Numbered from the stretch's first letter, positions 1-23,757 are shown. The stretch: DNA of 47,295 bases from Candidatus Rifleibacteriota bacterium (GCA_051747585.1 JBNJGH010000014.1:1-47295); one strand, 5' to 3'. Program-made: numbers and translations. Notes: generated from the sequence alone by a model not told the origin.

Positions 1-209
1 TAAGTCCATTCTTCGTCTTTTGGAAGTTTGGCGTTGACTTCATTTACTCGCGCCAGGGTTTCTTCCTGATTTTTGTGGGGCATTTTCTGCCAGTTTCTGA
101 TCAAATAAACTTTTTCGAAGTCCTCGACCGGATCGCAGGGCACACCAACCAGAGCCCAGCACTGAGAACTTAACAATATCAATGAAACCAGCAATAGTAT
201 CTTCTTCAT
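1..209 (-). CDS. Secreted hypothetical protein (3' end runs off window start)
   Basis: Manual translation from ATG at 209: MKKILLLVSLILLSSQCWALVGVPCDPVEDFEKVY..., open to the window edge; classic signal peptide; GAGG SD upstream. Not in the ORF track. Confidence 0.75.
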   Translation of the reverse strand, partial: MKKILLLVSLILLSSQCWALVGVPCDPVEDFEKVYLIRNWQKMPHKNQEETLARVNEVNAKLPKDEEWT

Positions 210-348
210 AAAAACCTCACCAAATGAAACAAGCTTTCTTAAATTATAATGACAACCAACACAACCCACAACCCGAGTAAAAAATTCTTAATCCTAAATA
301 GATTGCTGCCGATAAATATGGAAGATAAGAAAGTATGGAGGCATAATC

Positions 349-588
349 ATGATAATTCCCAATACTCCCTTGTATCAGTCCAAAACTGATGCTGAATTCA
401 GAATCAGAATGATTCACCACATCAAAGCCAACTACAAGGATGTGATCGGCAGTGATGTAAATGTCCTGGACCTACCCAACGGATTGGATATTCTTCAGGC
501 AAAAGTTCAAAAAAGACTCTTTGATATGAGCAATGGTGAAATTGACCTGACTCCAGAAGAAATCAGAAACGAGCAACTTGCTGCCTGA
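349..588 (+). CDS. Hypothetical protein, 79 aa
   Basis: GGAGG SD upstream of the ATG; followed by an intrinsic terminator; no recognisable family. Confidence 0.7.
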   Translation: MIIPNTPLYQSKTDAEFRIRMIHHIKANYKDVIGSDVNVLDLPNGLDILQAKVQKRLFDMSNGEIDLTPEEIRNEQLAA

Positions 589-610
589 TTCATTAAAGAG
601 AATTATTTAC

Positions 611-639
611 AAAGCTGTCTCAAACGAGGCAGCTTTTTT
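611..639 (+). terminator. Rho-independent terminator
   Basis: AAAGCTGTCTC-AAAC-GAGGCAGCTTT plus T-run just after the stop at 588. Confidence 0.8.
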
Positions 640-738
640 AAATTTCATGAATTAAGAGAATCAAATCAATTTTCGGTAAAGCTTAATTAACTGGTTTCCA
701 TACCCTTTGTTTTATTTATCTCGTCAAATGCTTATATT

Positions 739-954
739 AAACCACTGAGCCCACCGAGAGCGCGGAGGTGATTTTTTTTATCTTTTTCAGCCATTGTTTC
801 TAGCAACCAATCATCAGTCAGAAAAACACGAGTGCTTTTTTGACTGATGATTGGTTGCTAGAAAAGCCGGACGGTGAACCCGCCGGCTGATTGTCCGGCT
901 GGACAATCCCAGGCTGAAAAAGATTCTCTGTGCAACTCTGCGAGCTCTGTGGTT
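739..954. repeat. Four-way-junction intergenic repeat element, copy 1 (core 780-924)
   Basis: Core closed by ATCTTTTTCAGCC/GGCTGAAAAAGAT; long hairpin 797-864; AGCCGG-A-CGG/CCG-CCGGCT 865-888; GATTGTCC/GGACAATC 889-908; outer CCACNGAG/CTCTGTGG arms. Homologous to 12326-12536 and 15874-16080. Confidence 0.95.
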
Positions 955-1007
955 AATTATCTTCTAAATTTGGTAAAAAACATTTTTTAGTGCTAAGATA
1001 GCCTGTC

Positions 1008-2030
1008 ATGCTGAATAATAAAAGAAAACAGCAATTTTTTAAGTTTTTGCTCGTTATTAAACCACTTTTTATAGCGATTATGGTCGGGCTGTTTTTTATA
1101 TCGCCCGCTTCGCCCGGCTTTGCCCAGGTAACAATTGTCGCACCGCCTCCGGTTGTTAAAGAGAAAAATAATTCGGCAACCCCTGTGCCAGAGCAGAAAA
1201 AACAAAAAGCAGCAGAAGAAAAAATTCATTTCTATTCAGATCCAGCCCCTTTGATTCGAAAAACAAAAAGTTCAATGAACTTTGACCTTGAATTGTTTAA
1301 ACTTGAACAAGCCAAAGATTTCCCCCGAATAGATGCACCTGCAGGTTTGTATGATTTTTCGTACAGCGACAAAAACTTTAAAATTATCGCAAGCCACAGC
1401 CTAAAAGAGAAGGAGATAAAACCAGGTCAAACAATTGGCTTAGACTTTATGGTTTCAAATTTGACTTCCCGTGGCTATCGTCTAAAACAGGAAATAATTG
1501 CCCATGAAAAAATCAGAGCTGCTCATGAAAGAACTTCATTTTTACTTGAACCAGGGAAAAAAACCAATCGACACATTGCGCTTTTCTTAGACTCTTCTTT
1601 ACCTCCGGGAATTTATCAAATTGTCTATCGGCTTAATTCAACGGCCGGCAACACTTTGTCCGAAACAGTGAAATTCAAATTTGCAGTTAAAGCTTTTCCC
1701 TGCCTGAAATTCAAAAGAACTTCCTCTGCTCAAATTACAGAAAATTCATTATTCAAAGTAACCGGCGAACTTCATAACTGCGGCAATCTCGATCTATACC
1801 TGGATTTAGCCATTGGCGGCAATGCAAACAACCTGGAGGTTGTACCCTCGCGCATATCTCTTCCTGCCGGCAGCAACTGCTATCTGGAAATAAGTGGAAA
1901 ATCTCCGGCTTTGCTGCACCCAATGAAAAATGTACTGAAATTAAATTTTTCTGCCACGGCACGAACAAGCAAAAGAAACTTCGAACTTCTCAACAAACCC
2001 ATAAAATTGATTCTTGGGGCTTCTCCTTAA
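1008..2030 (+). CDS. Exported protein with Ig-like/NEW3-type beta domains; paralog of the N-terminal part of the 1337-aa usher-like protein
   Basis: Hydrophobic N-terminal signal; IKPGQTIGLDFMVSN, LPPGIYQIVY and VVPSRISLPAG are typical Ig-like strand patterns; motifs shared with 4752..8765. Confidence 0.7.
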   Translation: MLNNKRKQQFFKFLLVIKPLFIAIMVGLFFISPASPGFAQVTIVAPPPVVKEKNNSATPVPEQKKQKAAEEKIHFYSDPAPLIRKTKSSMNFDLELFKLEQAKDFPRIDAPAGLYDFSYSDKNFKIIASHSLKEKEIKPGQTIGLDFMVSNLTSRGYRLKQEIIAHEKIRAAHERTSFLLEPGKKTNRHIALFLDSSLPPGIYQIVYRLNSTAGNTLSETVKFKFAVKAFPCLKFKRTSSAQITENSLFKVTGELHNCGNLDLYLDLAIGGNANNLEVVPSRISLPAGSNCYLEISGKSPALLHPMKNVLKLNFSATARTSKRNFELLNKPIKLILGASP

Positions 2031-2075
2031 CTTGTTACCAACCTACACGTGGGCATGGCGGAATAGTGAGATTGC

Positions 2076-2247
2076 TTCGTCATTCCGGCCGAAAAAAATG
2101 AGAGCCGGAATCCAGGGTCAGGGTAATAAGTTTTTTTATTTAAACTAAGGGTTCAAAATTTTGAGCCCCTACGGTTTTGTTTCTTTAATAAAAAACGACG
2201 ATTATTCTGGATTCCTGATCCGGTTAGAACCGGTCAGGAATGACGAA
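2076..2247. repeat. CGTC-type REP doublet (REPIN/MITE-like)
   Basis: Terminal IR TTCGTCATTCC/GGAATGACGAA; left hairpin ATTCCGGC..GCCGGAAT-CCAG; right CTGG-ATTCCTGA..TCAGGAAT; central GGGTTCAAAA/TTTTGAGCCC palindrome. Confidence 0.85.
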
Positions 2248-2496
2248 TAGAGGATTAACAAACAGAATCATTTTTTTTACTCTTGGTGTTCTTTGTGACT
2301 TAGTGACTCCGTGTGAGGAGCAAATATTTTCAAAATAAATTTATTTTCATAATTATCACTAACAAAGCTTTTCAGTTTGCCGATACTTCTTCACAAGTTC
2401 TCTCATTAAAGCTATAGCTTAACAAGCTTATGATTTTTTGAGGAATGGATAATCAAATGGACTGGAAAACAATGTACACACCTGTTAAAATTTAAC

Positions 2497-2525
2497 TTGA
2501 CAAGCTTTAAACGCTTAAATAAGTT
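2497..2525 (+). promoter_or_regulatory. Putative sigma70 promoter upstream of the pilin-like gene
   Basis: TTGACA-N17-TAAGTT. Confidence 0.45.
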
Positions 2526-2772
2526 TGTTGACAGTGTCTGTAACATTTTGGGCAAACGCCTTAATCAAGGGGTTTGAAAGTTGTTTTGTTCAAAATTTCA
2601 GATAATGTCAGGTTAATATAACAATGTTAAAAAGGTATTGTACATTTAACCAAAGAATCTTGCATAGCGAGGGGGTGAGAGTAAGTAAAAAAAATTATCG
2701 GGTAAAATGTTCACTACCAAACAATATTTAGTTTTTTAGTTCTAAATAATTTTACAAGGAGATTTATTAATC

Positions 2773-3300
2773 ATGAGAGCCAAACTCTTCATTCTTCTAG
2801 CTCTATTTGTAGCCTTTTCGGCCACCTCTTTCGCAGGATCAATTGCCACCAACACAATTTCAATTGATCTGCAGGAAAACAGATCTCTGGAATTCGGAGC
2901 CGGCCAATCAACTGTTGCTACAGATGTAACCCGTCTTTCCAATGATCAGCTTGCGATTACAACCAACTGGACCCCCCAGATAGCTACCCTCAGCATTCAG
3001 CACGACCTGGGGCTTGAGCAAAAGATTACAGTTGAAACTGCCCTCCAAGATGGCGACTGGGTCGGCAGATACCTCACCGTAGAAGCTGGCATAACAGAAT
3101 TACCCGCCGGCGGGAACCCCACAGGTGAAATCAATTTAATTACAGACGGAACCGTTGGCCCTGTATCAGACCTCGTGACCGAAATACCTGCAACTTCCGG
3201 CGTAGAGGAAGTAACTCTTAATTACTTAATCGCAGCAGGACCAAATGCTTCACCTGGCTTGCATACAGCAGAAGTTTATTATACTTTGACAGACAACTGA
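2773..3300 (+). CDS. Putative major fimbrial subunit (CsuA/B / spore-coat-U-like)
   Basis: Signal peptide; 175 aa, Thr/Gly/Ala-rich; C-terminal ASPGLHTAEVYYTLTDN fits the G-x-(Y/H)...alternating-strand end of chaperone-usher pilins; AAGGAG SD; chaperone-like gene nearby. Confidence 0.65.
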   Translation: MRAKLFILLALFVAFSATSFAGSIATNTISIDLQENRSLEFGAGQSTVATDVTRLSNDQLAITTNWTPQIATLSIQHDLGLEQKITVETALQDGDWVGRYLTVEAGITELPAGGNPTGEINLITDGTVGPVSDLVTEIPATSGVEEVTLNYLIAAGPNASPGLHTAEVYYTLTDN

Positions 3301-3319
3301 TTTTTAACCTTAGAATCCC

Positions 3320-3354
3320 GCCCCCCTCTTTTTTTTCACAAAAAAGGAGGGGGC
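3320..3354 (+). terminator. Stem-loop after pilin gene (attenuator or mRNA stabiliser)
   Basis: GCCCCCCTCTTTTTT...AAAAAAGGAGGGGGC hairpin between the major and second subunit genes; weak U-tail. Confidence 0.55.
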
Positions 3355-3415
3355 TTGCTTTAGGCAAAGTTGAAGTAGTAGACTATCTTCTGAAATATTA
3401 AACAGGATTCATAAT

Positions 3416-3913
3416 TTGTCAGTGTTATTTGATAATTTTGCTAAAGTAATTTTTATTTTATATATTTTTTGCAACTTTTCGCTTGCATGCAATGCCGATT
3501 CAATAAGATTGGGTGGCACAAGCCCGCAATTGGAAATTCAAAGATCAGCATTGTCGGCACCTAAATGGCAAACAAGCACATCATCGGAATTAAGTGCAAT
3601 TATAACAACTACCGGCAATTACAAAATTACGGTTGAAGTCAATTCCTTGAATCCCTCCAAATGGCAGGGCAGGAGTTTAAAACTTGAGCTGGATGAACAG
3701 GCCGACTGGCTGGCGGAAAGTTATCTGGCTACATTTTATTGGATTAATTTAGTTGATGATGGAAGACTTTTATCAAATGCTGAGACTCTTGTCGACAATC
3801 TTGAGTCAGGCACACATCCTTATATTCCTTTAAAATATGAATGTTGGGCAAATAAAAATGCAGTTCCAGGCATAACCCAGTTAACTGTTACCTTTACCTT
3901 AATTAAACAGTAA
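3416..3913 (+). CDS. Putative minor fimbrial subunit (paralog of 2773..3300)
   Basis: TTG start; signal peptide; shares KITVE, W.GR.L, INL..DG and C-terminal NA.PG....V..TL with the upstream protein. Confidence 0.65.
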   Translation: MSVLFDNFAKVIFILYIFCNFSLACNADSIRLGGTSPQLEIQRSALSAPKWQTSTSSELSAIITTTGNYKITVEVNSLNPSKWQGRSLKLELDEQADWLAESYLATFYWINLVDDGRLLSNAETLVDNLESGTHPYIPLKYECWANKNAVPGITQLTVTFTLIKQ

Positions 3914-3936
3914 AACTAAATTTCAGGAGTAAAAAA

Positions 3937-4737
3937 ATGGCAAAGGCTTTTAAATTTCTTTTTATAATTATTTTTTCTTTTTCATGCCTGACTGCTAATG
4001 CTGTAACTGTTGAGAATCCCGCAGATGACATATATATAAGCCCGGGCGGCAATGCTGAAACTTCATTTCGTGTAATAAACCGCTCAAATAAAGAGCATCA
4101 AATAACCGTTTACCAGACAGATTACTTTTTTAATGCAGATGGTAAAAATGAATACGGTTCCCCCGGTCAGCACAAAAGATCAAATGCTGACTGGCTTGAA
4201 TTTACGCCCAAGCGCTTTTTAATCCAACCAAAGTCAAAAGTTGCTATTAATGTAACTGCCAATATTCCCCAGAAGTCTCTTAGCGGAACTTACTGGAGCG
4301 TATTGATGGTTGAATATATAGATGCAAAAGCCACAGAAGCCGCCAACACTTCAAATGCAGATATACAATCGAAAGTAACAGTTAAACGACGTACCGCCAT
4401 ACAGATTCGCACCCATATTTCAGGAACAGGCGAAATGAAAGCTCGCTATTTTAATCAATCTATAAAAGAAATTGACGGCGAAAGAAAATTTTTTGTTGAT
4501 ATGGAAAATACCGGAACCCTTTATTTTACCGGCCAGTTCTATATAAACTTCTTTGACAGCAAAGGCAAACCGGTAGAAAAAATTCTTCTTGGCAAAAAAT
4601 CACTTTATCCCGGCTGTTCTGCAAGATTTTCAGCAGACATTTCTCATCTCAAAAAGGGAAATTATACTGCCTTGTGTGTTTATGACACTTCAGGTGAAAA
4701 AGTATTCGGCGGAAAATACCAGATAGAAATCAAATAA
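3937..4737 (+). CDS. Putative fimbrial assembly chaperone (PapD-like/DUF916-like)
   Basis: Signal peptide; RSNADWLEFTPKRFLIQPK, GTYWSVLMVE and ENTGT motifs; two-Ig-domain size. Confidence 0.7.
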   Translation: MAKAFKFLFIIIFSFSCLTANAVTVENPADDIYISPGGNAETSFRVINRSNKEHQITVYQTDYFFNADGKNEYGSPGQHKRSNADWLEFTPKRFLIQPKSKVAINVTANIPQKSLSGTYWSVLMVEYIDAKATEAANTSNADIQSKVTVKRRTAIQIRTHISGTGEMKARYFNQSIKEIDGERKFFVDMENTGTLYFTGQFYINFFDSKGKPVEKILLGKKSLYPGCSARFSADISHLKKGNYTALCVYDTSGEKVFGGKYQIEIK

Positions 4738-4751
4738 AGTTTCTTTATTGA

Positions 4752-7700
4752 TTATTCAGCTTCCACCATTTCAACTTTTCTGATTATTGGCGAAACATTA
4801 AAGGTTAGTTTATTCTCAGCTTCAGGTTTTACATTAATAAAACCTTTTTCCGGACTGATTCGATAACCTTTCGGGATGGTATTTTCGTAAACTCTATATT
4901 TCCAGGAACCTGCCGGCAAACCGTAAAATTTAAATTTTCCCTCTGAATCTGAAACGGCTGTGTATCGTCTTTTATTTGATCTTACTTCCAATATGACTCC
5001 CGCAAGCTTCTGTGCTTCAATTTTTCTAAAGCCTGCAGGCATTGGGGCTAAAATATCTTTACCTGCTTCGTCTTTTATTTGAACAGTATCATCAGGAATT
5101 TCCGTTGATGCGACCTTAATCTGCCCGGAAAAAGTGCAGCCTTCCTCAAGTAAAAGGGTTACTGAAGCTACTTTTCCACCCGGAATATAAACTTTCAAGG
5201 GCAAGCCTTGCTGCGAAATTTTATTTAAACCGCTGTTTCTACGATCTATATCAAGAGTATAAGTACCCGGAGTCAGATCGGCAAAAACAAAATTTCCATC
5301 AGAATTTGTAACTGCTGCCATGTTTTTCATCAATAAGGTTATATTATCTAAAGATCGGGTCTGACTGCCGACTATTTCTTTAACCTGACCTTTCAATGCC
5401 CCTATTTGGTTGTTTCTGCCTGTCGGCATGCCGAACTCTCGAGTAAGGCTAAGCTGATAATAAACAGGGGCTTCTGCATAAACAGTTGAATATGAATTTT
5501 TTGACATCCTGAAATTAACGCGATTATTTGATTTTTTATAATTTAAATTTAAATTCATATTTTGACTGGTTCTGTCTGTTTCACTGTAATTGGTCTGGCG
5601 AAAGTTGAAAATAGCTGTAAGAGCGTTTGTCACTCTAAAGTTGATCCCCATTCCCAGACTGTTACTATTATCTTGAAAGTAATCATTACTACTATTATTT
5701 TTTTCCATTGATCCGTAAGCATTTAACATAAGTTTTCGGGTTATTTTGTAACTTCCATTAAATCTGTGCTGTATTCTATCTTTTTGCGTCCCATCAATCA
5801 GGTCATCAAGAACACGCTTGGAGAAAGAATAGTTTGAACTGTATCTTCTGCCATTTTTTGTTACAGACCCCGTATAAGCCTTGGTCTTAGTGTTATACTC
5901 ATTGGAAATTCTATCGAAACGGTGACTGTCACTATAGTTCAATCTGAAATAAGTATCTTTATTCAATCTATAACTGACACCTGTTCTCATAGAATCATTT
6001 TGTGAAGCCGGGGTGGAATCAGATTCAACCAGCCGATGCTGCTTAGACTTAGAATAAGATACAAAGCTCTTTATATTTTTGCCCAGTGGTATACTAACAG
6101 AAGTTCTGGTGTTTTCATTACCACTGTTGCTACCGGCATAAATCACCCCCGTGTCGCTATGACTTACGCTAAAAGTTGCGTAACTTCGAACTTTTGTAAC
6201 ATAATTCAATTTAAAAGCTGCATCTCTTGTATCTGCAAGATCACCGCCCCACTTTTTCCCAACTTCGCCGGTCAAACGTGAAATTCTGTTGGGACGAAAT
6301 TTAAAAGCCAGGGTGGTAAATCTTTCTTCAGGACTCAATTTATTTGTTTTACTGGTAGATACAAAATGACTTAACTTTAAATTAAGTTTCCTGCCAAAGG
6401 ACTGAGACACGAAAGCACCTTTTCCTTCAAGTTCATTGATTCGATAACGAGTTTCATAATTTATAAAGCCAACTTCGGTTTCATTGGTTAAATTGTAATC
6501 AACACCAATACCACGGCCGGTATAAGAACGAGAAAGCGCTGCCACACCAAAGCTATGATCACCGATCGCTACTTTCATTTTTCTGTCATTATAAAGTAAG
6601 CTTGAAGTCTCTCTGGAATAGGACAAACCTGAGTCTCTATTCGAACCTTTGTCGCGCACAAGAAATTCAATTTTACGGCTATGTGAATCATCCAGGTAAC
6701 CCTCTGATGAAACTTCCATCTGGGTGCTGTATTCACCTCTAAAACTTTTAACTCTGACAGTTGCATCTACAGGTAAGCGATGTTTAAAGTCTGTTTTAGT
6801 TCCGGCTTTGGTAAAAAATTTAAAGGTTATTATCTGTTTAAGTAAAACGGGTTTCTGGCTCTTGCTTAAGTCTCTTACAGTCAGATAAGTTACAAGTGAA
6901 TGACCTGGTTGGTTACCAACACCTGTTGTCCCTTTTATTACCAGATCAACAAATTCACCCGGAGCCAGATCGGCTTTTTCCTGCGAAAGATCTAATCTGA
7001 AATGCTTTTGTTCGCTGGCCTCAATTCCTAACGAAAGCTTAGTATTACTATTATTGAAAAGCTTGCCTTTGATTGTGAAGTCTTCGCCATAAATGACGCT
7101 GCCGGGCTTTTCTTCGATGACAAAATTAAGGTCGAGCATTTCCATTATGTTGAATTTGAATGAAAAACTACCATGGATCGCCTGGTCATTGCGCTCGAAG
7201 ACATTATAAGCAAATGTATGTTCGCCGGCTTTAAGATATTGAGGCACAGTAACCATAACAATACTGTTATAGGTTTCCATTGGCTCAAGACTGAATTCTG
7301 CAGGCGGAAAGGCCAGTTGAAAACCTTCGGGCATATCGAACTCTTCGACGAAATGCCCTGGTCTGCCGGATATGTTGGTAATCTGGAAACTTATGGTAAA
7401 GCTTTCGCCGGGTTCTACATACATGCTTTGCAAATCGGTGGCAGCTTCAATATGAAGGCCGCTGTCAAAGGAGTTTACCCCATAAATTACCGAGCCTTTA
7501 TTGACCTCTTCAGTTTTTACCACAAAGCTTCTATCTCCAGGAGCGACCTCTTTATCGGATTTTTTTGCTGAGGGTTTTTCTGGTTCAATTTTCTTTTTTG
7601 AAGTTTCTTTTTGCCTGTCAGCATCTGACTTAGCAGAAGCTTCGGTTTCTGTAACTTTCTTCACAGTTTCTTCTGCAATTGTATCTTTTTTTATTGCAAC

Positions 7701-8765
7701 ATCTTTAACCGTTTTGGCCTGTTGTTTGTGAGGTCTTTTTTTCGCTTTTTGCCTTTTTTGCGCAGTTTTCTTTGCAATCGTCGGCTCTATTACTTTTTCG
7801 ATTGGCTTTTCAGGTGTTTTTAATTCAGAAGAGCCTGGCTTAACAGGTTTTTTAGTTTCTGCAGGCGGTTCTGACGACTCGACATCTGAATAGCCTTTAA
7901 TTCTACGCCTTAACAGCTCGAGAGTTTTGCTTTTCTGCAGAATTGAATCTTCGGGGGTTCTGCCAGACTTAATCGGCTGCTTATCTAAAGTTTTTGTTTT
8001 ATTGGATTGCACAGTTTCTTGTGCAAGTTCTTTGCCGGATTCAGCCGGTGTCTTTGAAGTTTTTTCGGATTGTACCGGCGACCGCCCAGGGGCTTCAGCT
8101 TTTTTAGCAACAGCAGGTTTACTAATTTTACCAGTTCCCCCTGGCGAACGTCGGGGTGTTTTTATTTTTTGCTGTTTCGCTTGCGCAGGTTTTTTGTATG
8201 ACGGCTCTGCCTGGCTGACAGTTTTTTCAGATCGCTTTTGCAAAGGTTTGCCTGAAACTTTTGCTTTTGTCTTTAACTGCTTATTTTTAAGCGCCCTTCT
8301 AAATTTTCTGATCACAGAAGGATCACCGGTTAAATAAACAAAGGTCGACTCAAGCTGTTCCCGGGTTAATTTATTGCGAATTTCCTTGAGCGAATTTACT
8401 ACAGCCAGCGGATTACCTGCGCGATCGACCAGAATTAAAGGCATTCCCGAAGGAGCCCTGTCAGCTTCTTCCAATTTCAACAAGACGGGCGGCGGATTAA
8501 CAATCATTGATTTTTGCGAAGGGTTTGGCGTTACCCTTTCTATGGCAGATTTTTCATTGCGATGAGACATTTTTTTTGCAGGAGCTACTGATGTTTTAAG
8601 ATCAGACCCTTTCTTCTTCTCTTCATATATAGGTGGGGGAGAAACAATTTGAGGCTGTTGAAAAGCGTTTTGCCCCACAGCAAAAACTCTGGAATACGAT
8701 ATAAAGCATTCCATTATCAGCAAGAAAAAAACAAGTAAAAATAAGCTACTTGTTTTACTTCTCAT
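4752..8765 (-). CDS. Large usher-like outer-membrane protein with Lys/Glu/Pro-rich N-terminal linker
   Basis: Signal peptide; low-complexity aa ~170-410; two Ig-like modules; long amphipathic beta-strand region; two C-terminal carboxypeptidase-regulatory-like domains (TNSDGNFVFADLTPGTY, SDSEGKFKFYGLPAGSW). Convergent with the chaperone gene. Confidence 0.6.
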   Translation of the reverse strand: MRSKTSSLFLLVFFLLIMECFISYSRVFAVGQNAFQQPQIVSPPPIYEEKKKGSDLKTSVAPAKKMSHRNEKSAIERVTPNPSQKSMIVNPPPVLLKLEEADRAPSGMPLILVDRAGNPLAVVNSLKEIRNKLTREQLESTFVYLTGDPSVIRKFRRALKNKQLKTKAKVSGKPLQKRSEKTVSQAEPSYKKPAQAKQQKIKTPRRSPGGTGKISKPAVAKKAEAPGRSPVQSEKTSKTPAESGKELAQETVQSNKTKTLDKQPIKSGRTPEDSILQKSKTLELLRRRIKGYSDVESSEPPAETKKPVKPGSSELKTPEKPIEKVIEPTIAKKTAQKRQKAKKRPHKQQAKTVKDVAIKKDTIAEETVKKVTETEASAKSDADRQKETSKKKIEPEKPSAKKSDKEVAPGDRSFVVKTEEVNKGSVIYGVNSFDSGLHIEAATDLQSMYVEPGESFTISFQITNISGRPGHFVEEFDMPEGFQLAFPPAEFSLEPMETYNSIVMVTVPQYLKAGEHTFAYNVFERNDQAIHGSFSFKFNIMEMLDLNFVIEEKPGSVIYGEDFTIKGKLFNNSNTKLSLGIEASEQKHFRLDLSQEKADLAPGEFVDLVIKGTTGVGNQPGHSLVTYLTVRDLSKSQKPVLLKQIITFKFFTKAGTKTDFKHRLPVDATVRVKSFRGEYSTQMEVSSEGYLDDSHSRKIEFLVRDKGSNRDSGLSYSRETSSLLYNDRKMKVAIGDHSFGVAALSRSYTGRGIGVDYNLTNETEVGFINYETRYRINELEGKGAFVSQSFGRKLNLKLSHFVSTSKTNKLSPEERFTTLAFKFRPNRISRLTGEVGKKWGGDLADTRDAAFKLNYVTKVRSYATFSVSHSDTGVIYAGSNSGNENTRTSVSIPLGKNIKSFVSYSKSKQHRLVESDSTPASQNDSMRTGVSYRLNKDTYFRLNYSDSHRFDRISNEYNTKTKAYTGSVTKNGRRYSSNYSFSKRVLDDLIDGTQKDRIQHRFNGSYKITRKLMLNAYGSMEKNNSSNDYFQDNSNSLGMGINFRVTNALTAIFNFRQTNYSETDRTSQNMNLNLNYKKSNNRVNFRMSKNSYSTVYAEAPVYYQLSLTREFGMPTGRNNQIGALKGQVKEIVGSQTRSLDNITLLMKNMAAVTNSDGNFVFADLTPGTYTLDIDRRNSGLNKISQQGLPLKVYIPGGKVASVTLLLEEGCTFSGQIKVASTEIPDDTVQIKDEAGKDILAPMPAGFRKIEAQKLAGVILEVRSNKRRYTAVSDSEGKFKFYGLPAGSWKYRVYENTIPKGYRISPEKGFINVKPEAENKLTFNVSPIIRKVEMVEAE

Positions 8766-9064
8766 AGAACTAATAATTTTTTAAGCAAGCCTGATTGCCC
8801 TGCCATAATGAATTTATTGCCGCCTGTTCTTACTTTTCCGTAAACCTGATCAAATCTATCTGTATTTTTTTCCACCAGGTTGCTTGAAAAAGAAAGGTTC
8901 TCTAAATAAATCGACCTTGAGGCTTAAAACGATTAGGAATTTTCGCGAAGTTGAATCCTCGCAATCAAAAAATTGTTTTGTATTTTTACCCGGTCATTTC
9001 GACTAAAACTCAATGACCAGACATCGACTTCAACCAGATAACCAGAATTTAGACGAATCAAACC

Positions 9065-9088
9065 GGGCCGACCGCGGTCGGCCCCTAC
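9065..9088 (-). repeat. GTAG-type REP singlet
   Basis: Minus strand GTAG followed by the perfect 20-bp palindrome GGGCCGACCGCGGTCGGCCC. Confidence 0.7.
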
Positions 9089-9195
9089 AAAAATAATTTT
9101 CAATGAAAAACTCAACAGACTCCCCAAAACGGACAATCTGACTTTGACATTTCTCATTTGGTTTGAGGCTTTTATGAGAGATCTTTCTTATGGAA

Positions 9196-12171
9196 TCAGA
9201 AGGGGCTTTGGTCGGCTACTTCAGTGTGGTCAGTTGCATTCATGCCTTTTACAAATCTGTAAATTTCGCCGACCCACAAAACTACAGAAGTTGCAACAAT
9301 ACATATCAGCCAGTCTGAAAGATTCAAAGGCGTAGTTCGAAACATTAAACCACCAAACTGAACGATCAAAAACTGAATAAGCACTATTGCCGGCAAAATC
9401 ACCATAAACCCACGATTTTCCCAGATACCTTTCAATGATGAATGCTTAAAACCAAGCGCTCTTGCATTGAACATGTTCCAGACCTGTAGCATTACAAATA
9501 TGGTAAAAAACTTCGAAAGTTCATAAGTGTCTACAAGACCATCATTTTGATAATATTTCAGCAGAAAAATCAGGAAAATGTAGAAAATTATCCCGACCCC
9601 GAATATGTGCTTGTACATTGGTCTGGAAACAATAAAATCTCCCGGGTTGCGTGGAAAACGCGACATGACCTTCCAGTGTGGAGGCTCAGTTGCAAGCGCA
9701 AGTGCGGCAAAGGTATCCATAATAAGGTTGACCCAAAGCATTTGAATTACAGTAAGCGGCATTTTTACCCCGATAAATGGTCCGGTTAAGGCCACCGACA
9801 GAGCAACAAAATTAATGGTCAATTGAAACATAACAAAGCGTTGTATATTTTCATATAAGGAACGCCCCCACATAATACCCTTGACCAGACTTGGAAAAGA
9901 ATCGTCAAGCAGCACAATATCACTTGCTTCGCGGGCTACAGAAGCACCTGTCTTGCCCATCGAAAGACCAACATTGGCATAATTCAGGGCAGGAGCATCG
10001 TTGGTGCCGTCACCCGTAACAGCGACAACTTCATCGAGACTCTGCAGAGTTTTAACAAGCTTAAGTTTGTCAGCAGGGCGCGCCCTGGACATAATTCTAA
10101 TTTTGTCAGCTACTTTTCGACTTTCTCCTTCTGATAGTTTTTGAAACTCAGCTCCGGTAATATGAAAGTCTTCAAGATTGTCTGTATCATGAAGCAAACC
10201 AATCTGGCGACTTATTTCCAGCGCAGTTTTTGAATTATCACCGGTTACGACTTTTACTTTTACCCCGGCCTTTCTACAAACTTCGAGAGCTTTGGGAACA
10301 TCAGGGCGAATCGGGTCAGCGATAGCCACAAATCCTAACCAGACCATGTCTTTCGCAACTTCTTCCAACTCTGCTTTTTTATTTATCTCTTCTTGTCGCT
10401 TAAAAGCAAAGGCCAGAGTACGCATCCCCTTTTGCTGAGCTTGATTAAGCTGATCAAATATCTGGTCACTGAACTTATCTATTTTTTCTATTCCTCTGGT
10501 AGTTAAGACGTGGCTGCAAATGTCTGCCAAAAGCTCTGGCGCACCTTTAACATAAAGAACTTTTTCTTCGCCCATAGCGGAATAACCGTAACTGCCCATC
10601 ATTTTTCTTTCGGTAGAAAAGGTCCATTCTTTCTCGAGCTTGAAATTTTTTCTTAAAGCTTGATAATTGATACCCTGACTATGCAACCATAAAAGAATAG
10701 CACCTTCTGTAGGATTTCCTATTGCAGAAATCTCATTTTCTTTCAGGCTTAGATTAGCGCTACTGTTAACAGAGATAAGCTCTGCAAGCAGCTTTTCTGC
10801 ATCTGAGTTCAAATCTGAACTAAGCTTGTTATCGGGCAAGGCTGGAAAATAAATGGAATGCATCGCCATTTTGTTCTGAGTCAGGGTTCCGGTTTTATCT
10901 GAACAAATAACGGTAGCAGCGCCGATGGTTTCACAGGCGTGCATTCTGCGCACCAGATTGTTTGCCGCTGTCATGCGCCTCATACTGTAAGCCAGGCTCA
11001 AGGTTACGCTCATGGGCAGCCCCTCGGGAACAGCTACCACAATAATTGTAACCGCAATCATAAAGTATTTTAAGAATTCAGAAAGCGCATCTGTGGTTAA
11101 CCATAAGGTTGGGTCCTGTGCCAGAACTCCAGTAACGCTTCCGGTGGCAGCGCAGAAAAGAAAGAATCCCAGCCCGGCAATTACCGGCTTTAACCAGGCC
11201 TTAATGCCCTGTCCCCTTAAAAAGGCGGGATATTTAATTCTTTTTCCACTGAGTTCAACCGCATCAGCAATAATAGGAAACCATACCCTTGCCAGCATGA
11301 TCATCGAACCGGCAAAAACTAATACCGAAAAAGTCCACTGGGAACTTGTAAGCTGAAACTCTGAGTTGAAATACCCTCTCATTACAAGTGCTATAAAGGT
11401 AAAGAAGGCTATCGAAAAACCTATAATTCCAATAAGCTTACTCAAGCGATCAAGCTGGCGGTTCAAGGGTGTAACTTCATTGCTTTCTTCACCGGCCGCC
11501 CTCGCAGCTTTCCCTATTTCGGTTTTATCACCGACTGCGGTGACTGAGAAAATTCCGTGCCCATTAGCCACCATTGTGCTTCTAAGAAGAGAATCCGGGG
11601 CATAAGTGTTTTCAGAGCTGCTGTCATCGGATTCGGCAGTGGAACAAAATTTTGAAACCGGCAAAGATTCTCCGGTTAATTTTGACTCATCTATCTGCAA
11701 AGCAACGTCTTCCAAAAGACGGCCATCTGCCGGAATTTCCTCACCGGACTCTATAATAACGACATCACCGACAACAATGTCTTTTCTGGCTACCTTGGAA
11801 TAAATGCCATCTCTCAAAACTGTAACCGGTGCCTCATCGGAAACCTGGTTCAGAATATCGAATTCTTTGCCTGCCTTATACTCATTCAAAAATGCAAGAA
11901 CGGTGGCCAGCAGAATGGCAACAATAATTCCAATACCCTCGAGATATTCGCCGTTTATTGTTCCGACTCCGATGGCAATTATTGCCGCAATCATAAGAAT
12001 TCGGATTATCGGATCATCAAACTTTTCAACAAGCAGCATCCACCAGGGATCGCGTGGCGGTGGAGTTAAAACGTTAGAGCCGTATTTTTCGCGATTTTTA
12101 GAAACTTCTTCAGATGTAAGCCCTGTTTTATTGATTTTTTGTGCTTGATCTTCTGCTGCCATTATTTCCAC
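9196..12171 (-). CDS. Calcium-translocating P-type ATPase, PMCA type (start may be ATG at 12162)
   Basis: TGES, VPEGLP, DKTGTLT, KGAPE, GDGTND, QMLWVNLIMDTFAALALATEPP. Confidence 0.95.
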   Translation of the reverse strand: MEIMAAEDQAQKINKTGLTSEEVSKNREKYGSNVLTPPPRDPWWMLLVEKFDDPIIRILMIAAIIAIGVGTINGEYLEGIGIIVAILLATVLAFLNEYKAGKEFDILNQVSDEAPVTVLRDGIYSKVARKDIVVGDVVIIESGEEIPADGRLLEDVALQIDESKLTGESLPVSKFCSTAESDDSSSENTYAPDSLLRSTMVANGHGIFSVTAVGDKTEIGKAARAAGEESNEVTPLNRQLDRLSKLIGIIGFSIAFFTFIALVMRGYFNSEFQLTSSQWTFSVLVFAGSMIMLARVWFPIIADAVELSGKRIKYPAFLRGQGIKAWLKPVIAGLGFFLFCAATGSVTGVLAQDPTLWLTTDALSEFLKYFMIAVTIIVVAVPEGLPMSVTLSLAYSMRRMTAANNLVRRMHACETIGAATVICSDKTGTLTQNKMAMHSIYFPALPDNKLSSDLNSDAEKLLAELISVNSSANLSLKENEISAIGNPTEGAILLWLHSQGINYQALRKNFKLEKEWTFSTERKMMGSYGYSAMGEEKVLYVKGAPELLADICSHVLTTRGIEKIDKFSDQIFDQLNQAQQKGMRTLAFAFKRQEEINKKAELEEVAKDMVWLGFVAIADPIRPDVPKALEVCRKAGVKVKVVTGDNSKTALEISRQIGLLHDTDNLEDFHITGAEFQKLSEGESRKVADKIRIMSRARPADKLKLVKTLQSLDEVVAVTGDGTNDAPALNYANVGLSMGKTGASVAREASDIVLLDDSFPSLVKGIMWGRSLYENIQRFVMFQLTINFVALSVALTGPFIGVKMPLTVIQMLWVNLIMDTFAALALATEPPHWKVMSRFPRNPGDFIVSRPMYKHIFGVGIIFYIFLIFLLKYYQNDGLVDTYELSKFFTIFVMLQVWNMFNARALGFKHSSLKGIWENRGFMVILPAIVLIQFLIVQFGGLMFRTTPLNLSDWLICIVATSVVLWVGEIYRFVKGMNATDHTEVADQSPF

Positions 12172-12198
12172 CGTATTTCAATTTGACCTTACCAGCAG

Positions 12199-12227
12199 AT
12201 TATAAAGGTTTACACTTTCTTTATCAA
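12199..12227 (-). promoter_or_regulatory. Sigma70 promoter of the ATPase gene
   Basis: Minus strand TTGATA-N17-TATAAT. Confidence 0.7.
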
Positions 12228-12325
12228 TTAAAGCTCCAAATTGTAGCAATTCTCGGTTAGCTACTATCAGCTTGTTTCAGAAAAAAGATATTCCTCACAT
12301 GCAGCCTCAAAGCCGCAAAGAAAAT

Positions 12326-12536
12326 AACCACAGAGCTCTCAGAGAATCACGGAGAATCTTTTTCAGCCATTGTTCCCAGCAACATCAGGCCCTCAGAAAA
12401 ACACTGGTGCTTTTCTGAGGGCCTGATGTTGCTGGGAAAGCCGGACGGTGAAGCCGCCGGCTGATTGTCCAAAGGACAATCCCTGGCTGAAAAAGATTAA
12501 AAAATCGTCTCGGTGCGCTTAGTGATCTCAGTGGTT
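12326..12536. repeat. Four-way-junction intergenic repeat element, copy 2 (core 12355-12498)
   Basis: AATCTTTTTCAGCC/GGCTGAAAAAGATT; perfect 28-bp arms 12373-12400/12411-12438; same two short hairpins as copy 1; outer arms swapped relative to copies 1 and 3. Confidence 0.95.
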
Positions 12537-12640
12537 TAAATTCTTTATTTGCCCTGAAGAAATAATACCGGAACTTTTGGTAATCAGCTAATAATGATTG
12601 ACCGAGAATAGCTGTCCAAATTGCGATACCTATTCGAATG

Positions 12641-12688
12641 TCGGTATCGCTATCGGAATCGAAATCGAAATCGAAATCGAAATCGAAA
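12641..12688. repeat. Hexamer tandem repeat (TCGNNA)8 ending in (TCGAAA)5
   Basis: TCGGTA TCGCTA TCGGAA then five TCGAAA; overlaps the hairpin GCGATACC/GGTATCGC (12623-12650). Confidence 0.9.
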
Positions 12689-12714
12689 AAACTGGCTGGA
12701 AACAGCAATTACAG

Positions 12715-15700
12715 TCAATGTTTTATTGAAATTATTTCAAACATTTCGACCACTGAAGTTTTACCCTTGACCGAAGTTTCTTGAAGCTTTTCATATTCGA
12801 CATGTTCTTTTACCAGCTCAAGAGTGGCACTGCTTATTATTACATGAGAATGCCTGCCCTTTTTGCTCATCCCCTCAAGTCTGGAGGCGACATTAACGGT
12901 GTCTCCGATTACCGTATGATCCATTCTGCCGGGGGAACCGATATTGCCGGCAATAACTTCGCCTGAATTAATGCCGACTCCAATCATAATTGGGAACTTG
13001 TTTTCCAGCTCTCTTTGCTGATTAAAATCTTTTAATGAATCCATCATGGCCATACCAGCTTTCACCGCTTTAAGAGCCATTGTTTCGGGTTCGAACCCCG
13101 GCTCATCTTTGCTGATAAATTGAGCCATAATTGCATCACCGATAAATTTATCAATATCGCCGTCATATTTTTCAATTACCATATTCATTTTAGCAAAATA
13201 ATCATTTAAAAGAGCGACAACTTCTTCTGCATCATAGCTTTCAGACATAGTAGTAAAACTACGAATATCTGAGAATAAAATAGAAGCAGGAACCCTGCGG
13301 CCGCCAAGCTTAATCTCATGGGTGCTTTTTACTGCCTCAACAGCAGACTTCGACAAGTATCTTGTCATTCTTTCACGCTCATTCAGCCCTCTGGTCATCA
13401 GGTTTACTGCTGACCCAAGATTTACCAGTTCGTCTTTTCCGGGTAAAGAAATTCGACAATCATAGTTTCCTTCTTCTACCTGTTGAACTGTTTGTTTTAA
13501 AAGCTGTACCGGCTGAATAAAAGAACGTCCGGTGATTTTTACAAGAACGTATACGATAAGAATAGACACAAGCAAAATTATCAGAATCAAAATTTTTAAC
13601 AGCTGCAATCTTTCACTAATTGAGCTGTAATCATGCAATGCCATTACCGTATAAGATTCAATTCCGGATGGTATAAAGCTGTAAAGCAACACTTTTTTAC
13701 CATTGCTGAACCTGTATGAGTCTTTTAGCGAAACGCCCGCAAACCTTGTCGGCTCAGTAATTTTTCCGATACCGGTTGCATCTTTACTTTTAGCTGTGTA
13801 GTCAAACAATGGGTTCTTTATATTAGACCTGCGAAAATAATTATTGCCGTGAAAATCATTTTTCCCGTAGAAAACCTGAATTTCTTTACCAATTTTTGCT
13901 TCCTGCTGAAATTTGTCAATCATCAGCTGCAAATAAAGCTCATCAAACTTTCGATCTTTAATTATAAAAACAAGAATAAAAACCTCATTTTCATCTTTTA
14001 AGGGTGAAAACTGCCCCACATAAACTAAAGTTCTGCGCCCGGTAAATTTCAATTCAAAAGCGCTGCCCTCTTTTGCCCCGAGAATTGTCTGAATATCTGC
14101 AAATTGGGCTCCTCCGGTTTCTTCTATCATCAGGTCCATAAGACTTACTGCTCCTGCGTATCCTTTTTCGACAAGCTGCCCGCTCAGCCTCAATTTAAGC
14201 TTTGCCAAAGATTTAACCAGAGGCAAAAGGCCTTCACGCTCATTTGACTCGAACATATCTCCAGTAAGCTCTTCTCCAGCTGCGTTAAAAAGATAAAGGT
14301 GCTCTATACCAGCAAGATCAAAATAATTGTCTATAGTTTTATTTAAACCTGCTCCGGCAAAGCGCTTTTTTCCTTCTTTCTTATAATAGCCGCACAAATC
14401 TTTAATAAAATCATCGCCTATGACCTCAATATGCCTGAAAACATATTCGACATTCTCTTCTATTTCTTTTTTTACTCTTTCAAGCTTCTTATAAGCCTGA
14501 TTTTCGTAAAACTCGGCTCGGTCCTTAACCAGCTCGTTACCAAAATGAAAAACAGCAATCATTGGCAATGCCATTGCCAGGCAGAACAATCCAAGCATCT
14601 GCCATTTGATACTCAATGCGGCTCCATTATTACTGCGAAAATAAAAAACGACAAAAACAGCTAAAATAATGACTATAAAAGCAACAAAAAACAAAAGAAA
14701 CTTTTTTTGCTCGATTTGCATCTCAATATCTTTAATACTCTTTGCCGAAACAACTATTAATCGGCTGTTAAGTCTTTTTATTACCAATAACAGACTGTTT
14801 TTGCGATAAACCCCGTCAGGTTGCGAGCTTATCCAGTTTCGCCAGAATTTCTGCTGCGTTATTGAAAACGGATAGGGTAAATGAGAGGCAGTCTGATTAA
14901 GTTCATCGATCCAGCCTAGAGAAATTTGCTTATTCTGCCAGTCTGCACGTCTTCTCATCTTGAATCGACTCAAGCCAAAAACAGTCGGAAGCTTTTCTTC
15001 TTTAATTACAGCTAGAAATCCTTTGAATAAAAAATTACTATCCGGTAAATCATCGCCAAAATTCTGCCAGTATAGATACTGTATTTTTCCGGAGGTAGTA
15101 TTCAACCGGGTAATTTTGCCGTATTTAACAAAGTCGATAAGGCCCGAATCATCGCCAAAATACCTGCTTACCATAGGCAAAAACTTCTTATAGCCGCGAG
15201 AATTTTCATCTTTACCCTGACGTTTTTTCAGCCTTAAACAGATTGATTTTATGAGCTTTGAATAAACAAACTTTGGCAGTAATTTATCATTACTGCTTAT
15301 TTTTTTGTAATGACTGTCCCAGTAAATGAATTCAATGCCCGGTATGAGTTTTTCCAGCTTTTTATGATAATGAGAAAGCTTTAAGCCGTCGTGTAATACA
15401 AACCAGCGATTAAGTTGATCGGCTGAAATAAAGGGGATGAAAGAAAGCTTGGGCAAAAAAACTCTATTTCGATTAATTCGAAACATCAGGGGTAAAATAT
15501 TTTTTTCGTATTCTTTTAAAATTTCATTAATTTGAATTGATTGTTCCTGCTCCTGCACTGCCCTGCCGGCAACTTTTTCAAGTTCGAGCTCTAAATCGCT
15601 TAACTTACGATCTGCAGATTCGTGCATAGCACCAACCATCTGATTAAAAAGTATAATCAGCGGAAAGCACAACAAAAGAACAATAATAAAAAACCATTTC

Positions 15701-15771
15701 CACAGGGATAAGGGCTCGAGAACAAAGTTTTTGCCCTTAGACTTTTTCTCAACCGATATGTCGCTCGACAT
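12715..15771 (-). CDS. Membrane-bound class III adenylate/guanylate cyclase with HAMP domain
   Basis: Several TM segments; HAMP (DELVNLGSAVNLM); ILFSDIRSFT, DKFIGDAIMA, GDTVNVASRLEG. The Lys in DKFIGD and Asp in MDHTV favour ATP. Confidence 0.92.
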   Translation of the reverse strand: MSSDISVEKKSKGKNFVLEPLSLWKWFFIIVLLLCFPLIILFNQMVGAMHESADRKLSDLELELEKVAGRAVQEQEQSIQINEILKEYEKNILPLMFRINRNRVFLPKLSFIPFISADQLNRWFVLHDGLKLSHYHKKLEKLIPGIEFIYWDSHYKKISSNDKLLPKFVYSKLIKSICLRLKKRQGKDENSRGYKKFLPMVSRYFGDDSGLIDFVKYGKITRLNTTSGKIQYLYWQNFGDDLPDSNFLFKGFLAVIKEEKLPTVFGLSRFKMRRRADWQNKQISLGWIDELNQTASHLPYPFSITQQKFWRNWISSQPDGVYRKNSLLLVIKRLNSRLIVVSAKSIKDIEMQIEQKKFLLFFVAFIVIILAVFVVFYFRSNNGAALSIKWQMLGLFCLAMALPMIAVFHFGNELVKDRAEFYENQAYKKLERVKKEIEENVEYVFRHIEVIGDDFIKDLCGYYKKEGKKRFAGAGLNKTIDNYFDLAGIEHLYLFNAAGEELTGDMFESNEREGLLPLVKSLAKLKLRLSGQLVEKGYAGAVSLMDLMIEETGGAQFADIQTILGAKEGSAFELKFTGRRTLVYVGQFSPLKDENEVFILVFIIKDRKFDELYLQLMIDKFQQEAKIGKEIQVFYGKNDFHGNNYFRRSNIKNPLFDYTAKSKDATGIGKITEPTRFAGVSLKDSYRFSNGKKVLLYSFIPSGIESYTVMALHDYSSISERLQLLKILILIILLVSILIVYVLVKITGRSFIQPVQLLKQTVQQVEEGNYDCRISLPGKDELVNLGSAVNLMTRGLNERERMTRYLSKSAVEAVKSTHEIKLGGRRVPASILFSDIRSFTTMSESYDAEEVVALLNDYFAKMNMVIEKYDGDIDKFIGDAIMAQFISKDEPGFEPETMALKAVKAGMAMMDSLKDFNQQRELENKFPIMIGVGINSGEVIAGNIGSPGRMDHTVIGDTVNVASRLEGMSKKGRHSHVIISSATLELVKEHVEYEKLQETSVKGKTSVVEMFEIISIKH

Positions 15772-15873
15772 TTTTTCTCTCTCAGATGATTTCGTTTATT
15801 ATCTTAAACCATGAAGTGCTATTTGCATAAAATTTTTATTTTTAACAAATGAAAAAACAAAAAACAAAATTTC

Positions 15874-16080
15874 ACCACCGAGGCCTCAGAGAACACGGAG
15901 CTGTTTTTAATCTTTTTCAGCCTATGTTCACAATATTACCCAGCATTCAGAAAAACATTAATGCTTTTCTGAATGCTGAGTAATATTGTGAAAGCCGGAC
16001 GGTGAAACCGCCGGCTGATTGTCCAACGGACAATCCACGGCTGAAAAAGATTCTCTGTGTAACTTTGTGTCCTCTGTGGT
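15874..16080. repeat. Four-way-junction intergenic repeat element, copy 3 (core 15909-16052)
   Basis: AATCTTTTTCAGCC/GGCTGAAAAAGATT; 28-bp arms 15927-15954/15965-15992 with one mismatch; same two short hairpins. Confidence 0.95.
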
Positions 16081-16267
16081 TAATTATTTATGTATTTACA
16101 GCTTTAAGAACCTGGTGAGCTATAGAAATATTCGACAACGATTACGAGCACGAAAAAAGTTATACAATCAAATTAAAAATTACCGGGAGAAAATAAAGGC
16201 TATTATTAATTTAGAAGGAATTGTGCTAAAGTGAAAAGCATAATTTTTCAGTGTTAACGAGGATAAA

Positions 16268-17032
16268 ATGTCTAAACCTTTAGCAAGATTTTTAAAGCAC
16301 ATGAATTCAATTGAAGTTGAAAGCCTGATTGCAAGAGAAGCACCAATTTTTTTGCCAATCGGAACCCTTGAGCCTCATGGGCGCCACTTACCAGTCGGCA
16401 CAGATACTTTATGCGCCGAAAAACTCTGCGAAGAGCTCAGCATAAATTTAGAAGGAGCAGTAGCACCTTCAATAGAATATGGAATTACAAATTCACTTGC
16501 TCAGACTGCACCTGCGAGCTTCTTTGACCAGGAACTTTTTGAAACTTTCACCTCAACAATAATTAAAAACTATATAAAGCATGGCTTTAAAAGCATAATC
16601 ATTGTCAACGGCCATGGCGGGAATGTTGAACCGTTAAAAAAAATATCACGCAAGATAATCAGAGAAGACCGGGTTGCACTTTGCGTAATTAACTGGTGGA
16701 AACTTTCGGAAAAGTTTGTTCCCGAAATTTATTCTACAGGCCCGGGTGGGCATGCCGCAGTTGAAGAAACCGGTCTTATGCTCCATTTTTATCCCAGGCT
16801 GGTAACTCCCGATAACTACAATCCCAAACAGGATGATTATATTGCCGACAACTATATATGGTTTTATCCACCCCCCGGCGAAGTAATTCTATCCCAACCT
16901 GATACAGGCCAGCCTTCTTTTGATTGTGGCAAAGCCGCAAAATTTAGTGAAAAAATTATTGAAGACCTTGAAAATCGGGTAAATAAATGGCTGGCAAAAA
17001 TCCACAACCTTACCGGAGGCTTGAGACCTTGA
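16268..17032 (+). CDS. Creatininase family amidohydrolase
   Basis: LPIGTLEPHGRHLPVGTD, NGHGGN, GHAAVEET metal-binding motifs. Confidence 0.92.
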   Translation: MSKPLARFLKHMNSIEVESLIAREAPIFLPIGTLEPHGRHLPVGTDTLCAEKLCEELSINLEGAVAPSIEYGITNSLAQTAPASFFDQELFETFTSTIIKNYIKHGFKSIIIVNGHGGNVEPLKKISRKIIREDRVALCVINWWKLSEKFVPEIYSTGPGGHAAVEETGLMLHFYPRLVTPDNYNPKQDDYIADNYIWFYPPPGEVILSQPDTGQPSFDCGKAAKFSEKIIEDLENRVNKWLAKIHNLTGGLRP

Positions 17033-23370: not shown

Positions 23371-23692
<322 letters not shown>

Positions 23693-23757
23693 TCTTTCCC
23701 GGCTGATAATAATTGCCAGAACGCTGACCGAGAATTGCTGATAATATCTACTAAGGT

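Follow-up and report, generated by a model that had tools for sequence, protein, structure and literature searches.

Matched variation in the arms of a long hairpin within a palindromic core carried by a miniature inverted-repeat transposable element of a Candidatus Rifleibacteriota bacterium

The 47,295-nucleotide stretch JBNJGH010000014.1:1-47295 of assembly GCA_051747585.1 (Candidatus Rifleibacteriota bacterium), referred to here as the window, contains three copies of a palindrome-rich repeat whose long hairpin carries a variable segment of 18-19 nt in one arm and its complement in the other (Table 1). At the centre of the repeat lies a core of three hairpins (the long hairpin P2 and the short hairpins P3 and P4) closed by a 13-14-bp inverted repeat (P1). 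The core is enclosed by inverted arrays of CACAGAG-type heptamers, and core and arrays together, the inner unit, are carried in a non-coding, intergenic transposable element of the miniature inverted-repeat type (MITE) of ~370 bp with terminal inverted repeats (TIRs). The cores of the three window copies are predicted to fold with z-scores of -14.6 to -17.3 on both strands, values reached by none of 200 shuffled sequences, and the long hairpin of each has a 2-nt centre and a stem of 32-33 bp. The variable segments and their opposite-arm complements lie in all three copies where the initial annotation of this DNA had placed them, with the pairing it described; its stem length of 28-29 bp is correct only up to a persistent mismatch four bases off the centre.

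The assembly is metagenome-derived, with 330 contigs and 93.6% completeness. An anchor on the two short hairpins matched 115 genomic sites, which yielded 107 complete cores of 141-145 nt each, so that the variable arm could be extracted and its length and pairing tabulated for all 107. These cores carry 67 distinct arms, which are 18 nt long in 95 cores, 19 nt in 10, 17 nt in 1 and 20 nt in 1, and the two arms pair perfectly in 79 of the 107 cores and with one mismatch in 21, that is, with at most one mismatch in 100 of 107. The stem measures 32 bp in 86 of 107 copies. A four-way multiloop is predicted for at least 105 of 107 cores (DNA parameters, top strand), 29 of them without any unpaired base at the junction. 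A search with the tip of P2 alone found 16 extra sites, including one near-complete copy that had been filtered out and four sites that belong to two rearranged copies; since the extra sites are mostly truncated or at contig ends, the census seems to hide no class of degraded cores. A subfamily with an A-rich segment (CGCAAAG-type repeat) in place of the left half of P1 and the long hairpin was also observed (Table 1).

The variable arms descend from one ancestor. The nearest-neighbour distance among the 55 distinct 18-mers is 2.3 differences, against 8.4 for shuffled arms (lowest of 200 shuffles, 7.9); 54 of the 55 join a single network at no more than 7 differences, and the commonest version is common to 31 copies. 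Words shared between copies at shifted positions had been read as traces of insertions and deletions, a reading that does not hold, for identity among the 55 18-mers falls from 0.54 in register to 0.28 when they are displaced by one base, and is 0.34 when they are displaced by three. The shifted words arise because the low complexity of CAN triplets gives a side peak at three bases.

The copying of one arm onto the other, which the initial annotation had proposed, is supported by the genomic copies. Among the 42 of 53 representatives that have a symmetric 18-nt arm, two-sided changes occupy 247 of 756 arm cells and mismatches 17, whereas P1 has 4 two-sided changes and 25 mismatches in 546 cells. 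The two junction-proximal base pairs of P2 are conserved, with 1 two-sided change in 84 cells, beside the freely changing arm. The residual arm mismatches comprise 13 A-C and 12 G-T pairs without strand bias, and their equal frequency points to copying at the level of DNA, not to selection on one RNA strand. Both the hairpin tip and the whole core have been inverted repeatedly. The tip of the 31 copies with an identical arm reads G-TC-T in 19, the exact inverted complement A-GA-C in 6 and other states in 6, and the core is inverted in 4 of these 31, which shows that inversion is faster than point mutation. Over all cores the two orientations relative to the flanks number 66 and 41, and the tree needs no fewer than 20 switches between them. 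In two copies (G000:C52:1328-1517 and G000:C92:8206-8400; order P1-P2a-P3-P2b-P1) another long hairpin, whose variable arm differs from the first, stands in place of P4; both keep the four-way fold, one with a stem of 36 bp. These copies fit a switch at P3 and may be due to inverted duplication in place or to exchange between copies.

The arms were initially called hypervariable, which is true relative to the scaffold formed by the rest of the core. On one tree of the 45 copies of full length among the 107, the arms take 4.3-4.6 Fitch steps per site, the tip stem 0.25, P1 0.4-1.1, P4 0.95 and P3 1.8. It is not true relative to the unpaired outer arms of the MITE, which have 3.2-3.6 steps per site, so that the hairpin arms change only ~1.2-1.4 times as fast. 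Between close pairs of copies the divergence of the variable arm (0.03-0.11) is about equal to or lower than that of the outer arms (0.04-0.13). The most frequent arm changes are C>T (82) and G>A (31). Because copying cannot slow substitution, the slow scaffold implies a constraint on the scaffold sequence itself.

The nearly constant arm length had been taken as the sign of a length ruler. The regularity stands, with 106 of 107 arms at 18 ± 1 nt, so that a ruler may exist; it is unnecessary, however, since the MITE itself keeps its length and a 36-bp stem exists in one rearranged copy. The tree of 107 cores needs ~6 length changes against ~200 arm substitutions, and 15 distinct indels were counted in the outer arms of 27 representatives; the few outer-arm indels and the constant length of the MITE indicate that indels are scarce throughout the element.

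The outer layer is a MITE by its ends, its target duplication and its parent element. Forty-seven pairs of TIRs of the CAGCAATTCTCGGT type are present in the genome, of which 32 span 367-373 bp, and an exact target duplication of 9 bp flanks 18 of the 47, one of 7-8 bp flanks 6, and 23 have none of 4 bp or more. The same type of end motif is found in 34 of 50 relatives, often in many copies, around other interiors. One relative (G022) has a 1564-bp element with these ends and a 439-aa DDE transposase (DDE_Tnp_1 open reading frame); no target duplication is visible at this element, and the transposase falls below every NCBIfam family cut-off. It may resemble the ISNCY/ISMae2 group. An eroded MITE arm lies to the left of the inner unit of copy 1 (~663-740). 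A contig of sequencing run X2 (depth 3.8) is without window positions 15838-16194, around copy 3, where it has 34 letters with TIR-like remnants and so not a clean empty site.

Several further observations concern the MITE and its ends. A predicted sigma-70-like promoter (11 of 12 positions) for a P-type ATPase gene lies just outside the left end of the MITE of copy 2 (window 12199-12227, minus strand). A lone MITE end with a partial left arm is joined to a different type of repeat at ~23630-23740 (minus strand). Elsewhere the same ends surround other REP-like repeats, not the core (G000:C203:1377-1731, C248:1388-1744 and C7:4172-4581), which suggests that these ends collect different palindromic cargo. 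In another genome, G017, a sister MITE of 278 bp shares these ends and has, in several copies, 9-bp duplications (L055-L058, L060 and L064); its interior consists of different nested palindromes with two central hairpins, and two-sided changes were seen by eye in its short hairpin as well.

Table 1. Positions of the nested layers of the repeat in the window, and of a subfamily elsewhere in the assembly
Feature	Position	Strand	Remarks
Complete MITE, copy 2, 371 bp	12244..12614		Imperfect TIRs, CAGCAATTCTCGGT type
Left 9-bp target-site duplication TCCAAATTG	12235..12243	+	
Right 9-bp target-site duplication TCCAAATTG	12615..12623	+	
Inner unit, copy 2	12327..12535		Core between inverted CACAGAG-type heptamer arrays 12327-12355 and 12498-12535
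Core, copy 2, 142 nt	12356..12497		P1 = 12356-12368 / 12485-12497; predicted four-way junction
Variable left arm of P2, copy 2, 18 nt	12375..12392	+	
P2 tip, copy 2	12393..12418		Conserved 26-bp palindrome; centre 12405-12406; persistent A/C mismatch at -4
Variable right arm, copy 2	12419..12436	+	Exact reverse complement of left arm
Hairpin P3, copy 2	12439..12462		Conserved, GC-rich
Hairpin P4, copy 2	12463..12481		Conserved
Inner unit, copy 1	741..953		Core inverted relative to heptamer arms, compared with copy 2
Core, copy 1, 145 nt	780..924		
Variable left arm, copy 1, 19 nt	799..817	+	Exact complement at 844-862
Inner unit, copy 3	15874..16080		MITE arms not recognisable; core orientation as in copy 1
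Core, copy 3, 142 nt	15910..16051		
Variable left arm, copy 3, 18 nt	15929..15946	+	Complement 15973-15990, one C/A mismatch
A-rich subfamily members	G000:C13:13862-14230, C18 near 5003, C78:11681-12007, C126 near 9136		

We consider it probable that the variable segment is the unconstrained middle of a hairpin within a MITE-borne palindromic core, whose arms are kept matched by template switching. The 18-19-nt middle of P2 would acquire ordinary point mutations roughly as fast as the flanks do, and a polymerase that switches template (fold-back copying) during replication would transfer each change to the partner arm or remove it. This process probably also accounts for the inversions of the hairpin tip and for those of the entire core, which take place between its 14-bp inverted repeats. 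Polymerase template switching is described in excerpts of PMC8604942 as yielding both the homogenisation of arms and the inversion of the spacer between them, which makes it the likely copying route, as judged from the pattern of changes; cruciform repair would leave similar traces. Compared with the quasi-palindromes treated by the Ripley model in these excerpts, which share arm homogenisation and reversible spacer inversion with the core, the process here would be in a steady state over ~100 copies and act at two nested levels (the tip and the 142-nt core), and it differs in that most copies keep one mismatch near the tip. A DDE transposase like that of the G022 element, which shares the ends, would move the MITE, and the scaffold (P1, tip, P3 and P4) would be kept as a cis-acting site for the spread or persistence of the inner unit.

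Several observations weigh against this reading. Passive copying leaves the conservation of the scaffold unexplained, even in the 21 of 93 scorable copies in which the outer MITE arms are at background identity and the scaffold identity is still 0.94. Nor is the A-C/G-T mismatch at -4, which persists in 83 of 107 copies while the positions on either side have changed two-sidedly, predicted by simple copying. Between distant pairs the divergence of the arm exceeds that of the outer arms by a factor of ~1.5-2 (mean p-distances of 0.39 and 0.13-0.33, respectively), so a modest local excess of mutation is possible. No arm is shorter than 17 nt among the 107 despite the runs of CAA/CAG triplets in the arms. 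Finally, the 93.6%-complete assembly contains no close homologue of the G022 transposase (best match, 24% identity) and no match to a gene for a GxxExxY protein, a family linked to the heptamer arrays in relatives.

Prokaryotic MITEs that depend on a trans-acting DDE transposase resemble the element in its size of ~370 bp, its non-coding and intergenic nature, its TIRs and its 9-bp target duplication; unlike them, it is filled with nested palindromes, and its invertible core is better conserved than its ends. The interior resembles REPINs, hairpin-forming doublets of repetitive extragenic palindromic (REP) sequences. Their spacers are described in excerpts of PMC3337134 as all different, always hairpin-forming and of discrete lengths, and in PMC3337134 and PMC3116915 they likewise consist of two inverted short repeats that enclose such a spacer. 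The differences are that tandem CACAGAG-type heptamers form the ends here in place of short imperfect palindromes, that the spacer is a three-hairpin junction, and that the heptamer ends flank GxxExxY genes (in relatives), not a REP-associated tyrosine transposase (RAYT). The only Y1 transposase (PF01797) of the genome sits at the end of a contig, and the one flank present in the assembly has repeats of other types and no heptamers. By analogy, the variable yet always paired spacer is REPIN-like, without the RAYT link of a REP. Other mobile-type genes of the genome include one IS110 transposase, a group II intron-like reverse transcriptase (RT) and a retron RT, and none of these or the Y1 transposase was tied to the core.

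The link of the heptamers to GxxExxY proteins (PF13366) raises the question of whether the core is an enzyme substrate rather than a passive palindrome. We regard it as unlikely that the 142-nt core is a single-stranded four-way-junction cis site of a replicator driven by a GxxExxY-type nuclease, spreading or being rewritten independently of the DDE MITE; the junction, the tip and the short hairpins would then be read by a protein, and the long arm would merely be paired over about three helical turns. The related proposal that the core has a geometric requirement as a substrate, a tightly stacked four-way junction of single-stranded DNA or a cruciform that a nuclease (e.g., a GxxExxY PD-(D/E)XK protein tied to the CACAGAG arms) would cut and resynthesise, thereby rewriting the long arm and holding it at ~32 bp, seems to us similarly doubtful. 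Inverted CACAGAG arrays of the same kind stand on both sides of 5 of 30 GxxExxY loci in relatives, and on one side of 3 more, compared with 1 of 29 control loci with any CACAGAG doublet; in the genome studied here 181 of 238 such doublets adjoin a complete core and 43 lie at contig ends. In its arrays the inner unit resembles a GxxExxY heptamer-repeat cassette that is without its gene. The nearly universal four-way fold, its tight closure in 29 cores, the conserved junction-side pairs of P2 and the prevalent 32-bp stem would also suit an enzyme that reads the junction. Against it, GxxExxY is unmatched in 5 congeners as well as in this genome, 20 scored MITE-free units show no target duplication above control (mean 3.75 vs 4.1 for mispaired flanks), a fixed geometry sits poorly with the 36-bp stem, and substitutions accumulate at close to the flank rate. 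A full-text literature search on GxxExxY gave, among the papers listed and as judged by title and start of abstract, nothing on CACAGAG repeats.

The arrangement of the core also recalls a retron, and its minus strand could be a retron-like msr-msd template copied by the resident RT, with the msd-like arm free to vary. Read on that strand, the order of parts (terminal inverted repeat a1, two short hairpins, long hairpin, a2) fits the layout given in excerpts of PMC6868368, whose cited titles include one on msDNA-like repeats in Nannocystis, and the genome does encode a stand-alone retron-type RT of 285 aa (L023:1348-2205, minus strand; G000:C43). That RT has its own upstream non-coding RNA (ncRNA; ~2225-2362), which comprises three short hairpins plus an msd-like one of very small size (~7 bp), is conserved in four aligned congeners and is unlike the core in sequence. 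The RT is present in all 5 congeners, every one of which is without the core, and in 7 of 7 genomes of another genus, and no core lies near the RT at C43. Unlike retron ncRNAs, the core has no adjacent RT, no single-stranded linker between P3 and P2 and apparently no unpaired priming G in its stem motif: the G of CAGC is base-paired, and another G, usually three bases inside the stem, is common and not invariant. The loop of P3 varies, and the long stem has almost none of the mismatches that msd stems usually show. That the core is such a template is quite improbable.

We hold it to be slightly less credible still that the core functions as a structured RNA, with pairing in its long stem maintained by selected compensatory mutations. 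The fold is very stable, the scaffold is conserved where the MITE arms are lost, and the L end faces the start of a gene in 56 of 71 scored copies, against ~57% expected. Yet both strands fold almost equally and the core flips relative to its flanks, and selection on RNA would favour G-U on one strand, whereas G-T and A-C mismatches number 12 and 13. Rfam matches in window 1-17000 were only of miRNA type plus one archaeal small RNA, all far below gathering scores. The tip motif is, moreover, practically limited to this genome among 87 from the phylum: its pattern has 106 sites here and one site with 1 mismatch in each of 2 of the 86 others. BLAST found the core in 0 of 40 relatives, and no match to it was found in viral contigs. 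A scan for terminators around copy 2 gave none. Neither one genome-collection scan for the MITE-end pattern nor a first metagenome scan for the element gave a match; the four matches of a second metagenome scan proved to be one unrelated locus without the hairpin. Literature searches of main texts returned no paper on this element.

The initial annotation had ventured that the variable segment is a guide-sized cassette in a constant scaffold. Its size, its constant flanks and its 67 distinct versions are indeed guide-like, but the 18-19-nt segment is not a guide cassette. Unlike the variable segments of RNA-guide cassettes (CRISPR-, TIGR- or bridge-RNA-like), those here are mutually related through stepwise descent, with the commonest in 31 copies, and each is wholly sequestered by its own complement. 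Their matches to host and viral DNA are at chance level. In the masked host genome the best match has 2-4 mismatches for 32 arm clusters and likewise for 64 shuffles, with means of 2.9 and 2.8 near-hits, respectively; exact matches in viral contigs, scanned for the 3 window arms of the 67 arms, numbered 0, 1 and 1, compared with 1 and 0 for two control 18-mers. That the scaffold carries acquired guides against foreign or host DNA is therefore extremely improbable.

The arms appear unchanged in related strains where they are visible, as suggested by the contigs of runs X1 and X2. A 481-nt contig of run X1, from a related strain, extends over the left arm and the tip in copy 3, the one orthologous arm read directly in related strains, and shows a single difference in total. 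The contigs of X1 and X2 and the copy on C3 are five substitutions and one insertion apart, as are the copies on C132 and C3; three of the five substitutions and the insertion agree with the C132 type, and the other two are presumed to do so. The suspicion that the perfect arms and the flips arose as artefacts of the assembly or the library, which the 330-contig metagenome assembly with many breaks at the element and the chance that near-identical young copies are mosaics might encourage, deserves hardly any credence, given that contigs of two other studies hold the whole hairpin with the C132-marking differences, that the X1 contig spans the left arm and tip of copy 3, and that the core inversion uses repeats of only 14 bp.

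Two tandem repeats were also noted in the window. A short GAAATC-type run adjoins copy 2 (12645-12690) and matches contigs of many other organisms in four sequencing runs, and an array of 45-nt units (46924-47295) reaches the contig end.

On the reading preferred here, the element is a species-specific, MITE- and REPIN-like repeat, ordinary in kind, in which three layers of mobile-element parts are nested in one 370-bp unit. It offers a natural record of template switching, with ~100 copies in which homogenisation and the inversion of tip and core can be counted against point mutation, and the retained near-tip mismatch serves as a built-in marker. If the four-way scaffold were indeed the substrate of a GxxExxY nuclease, it would provide a ready assay for an uncharacterised and widespread family.

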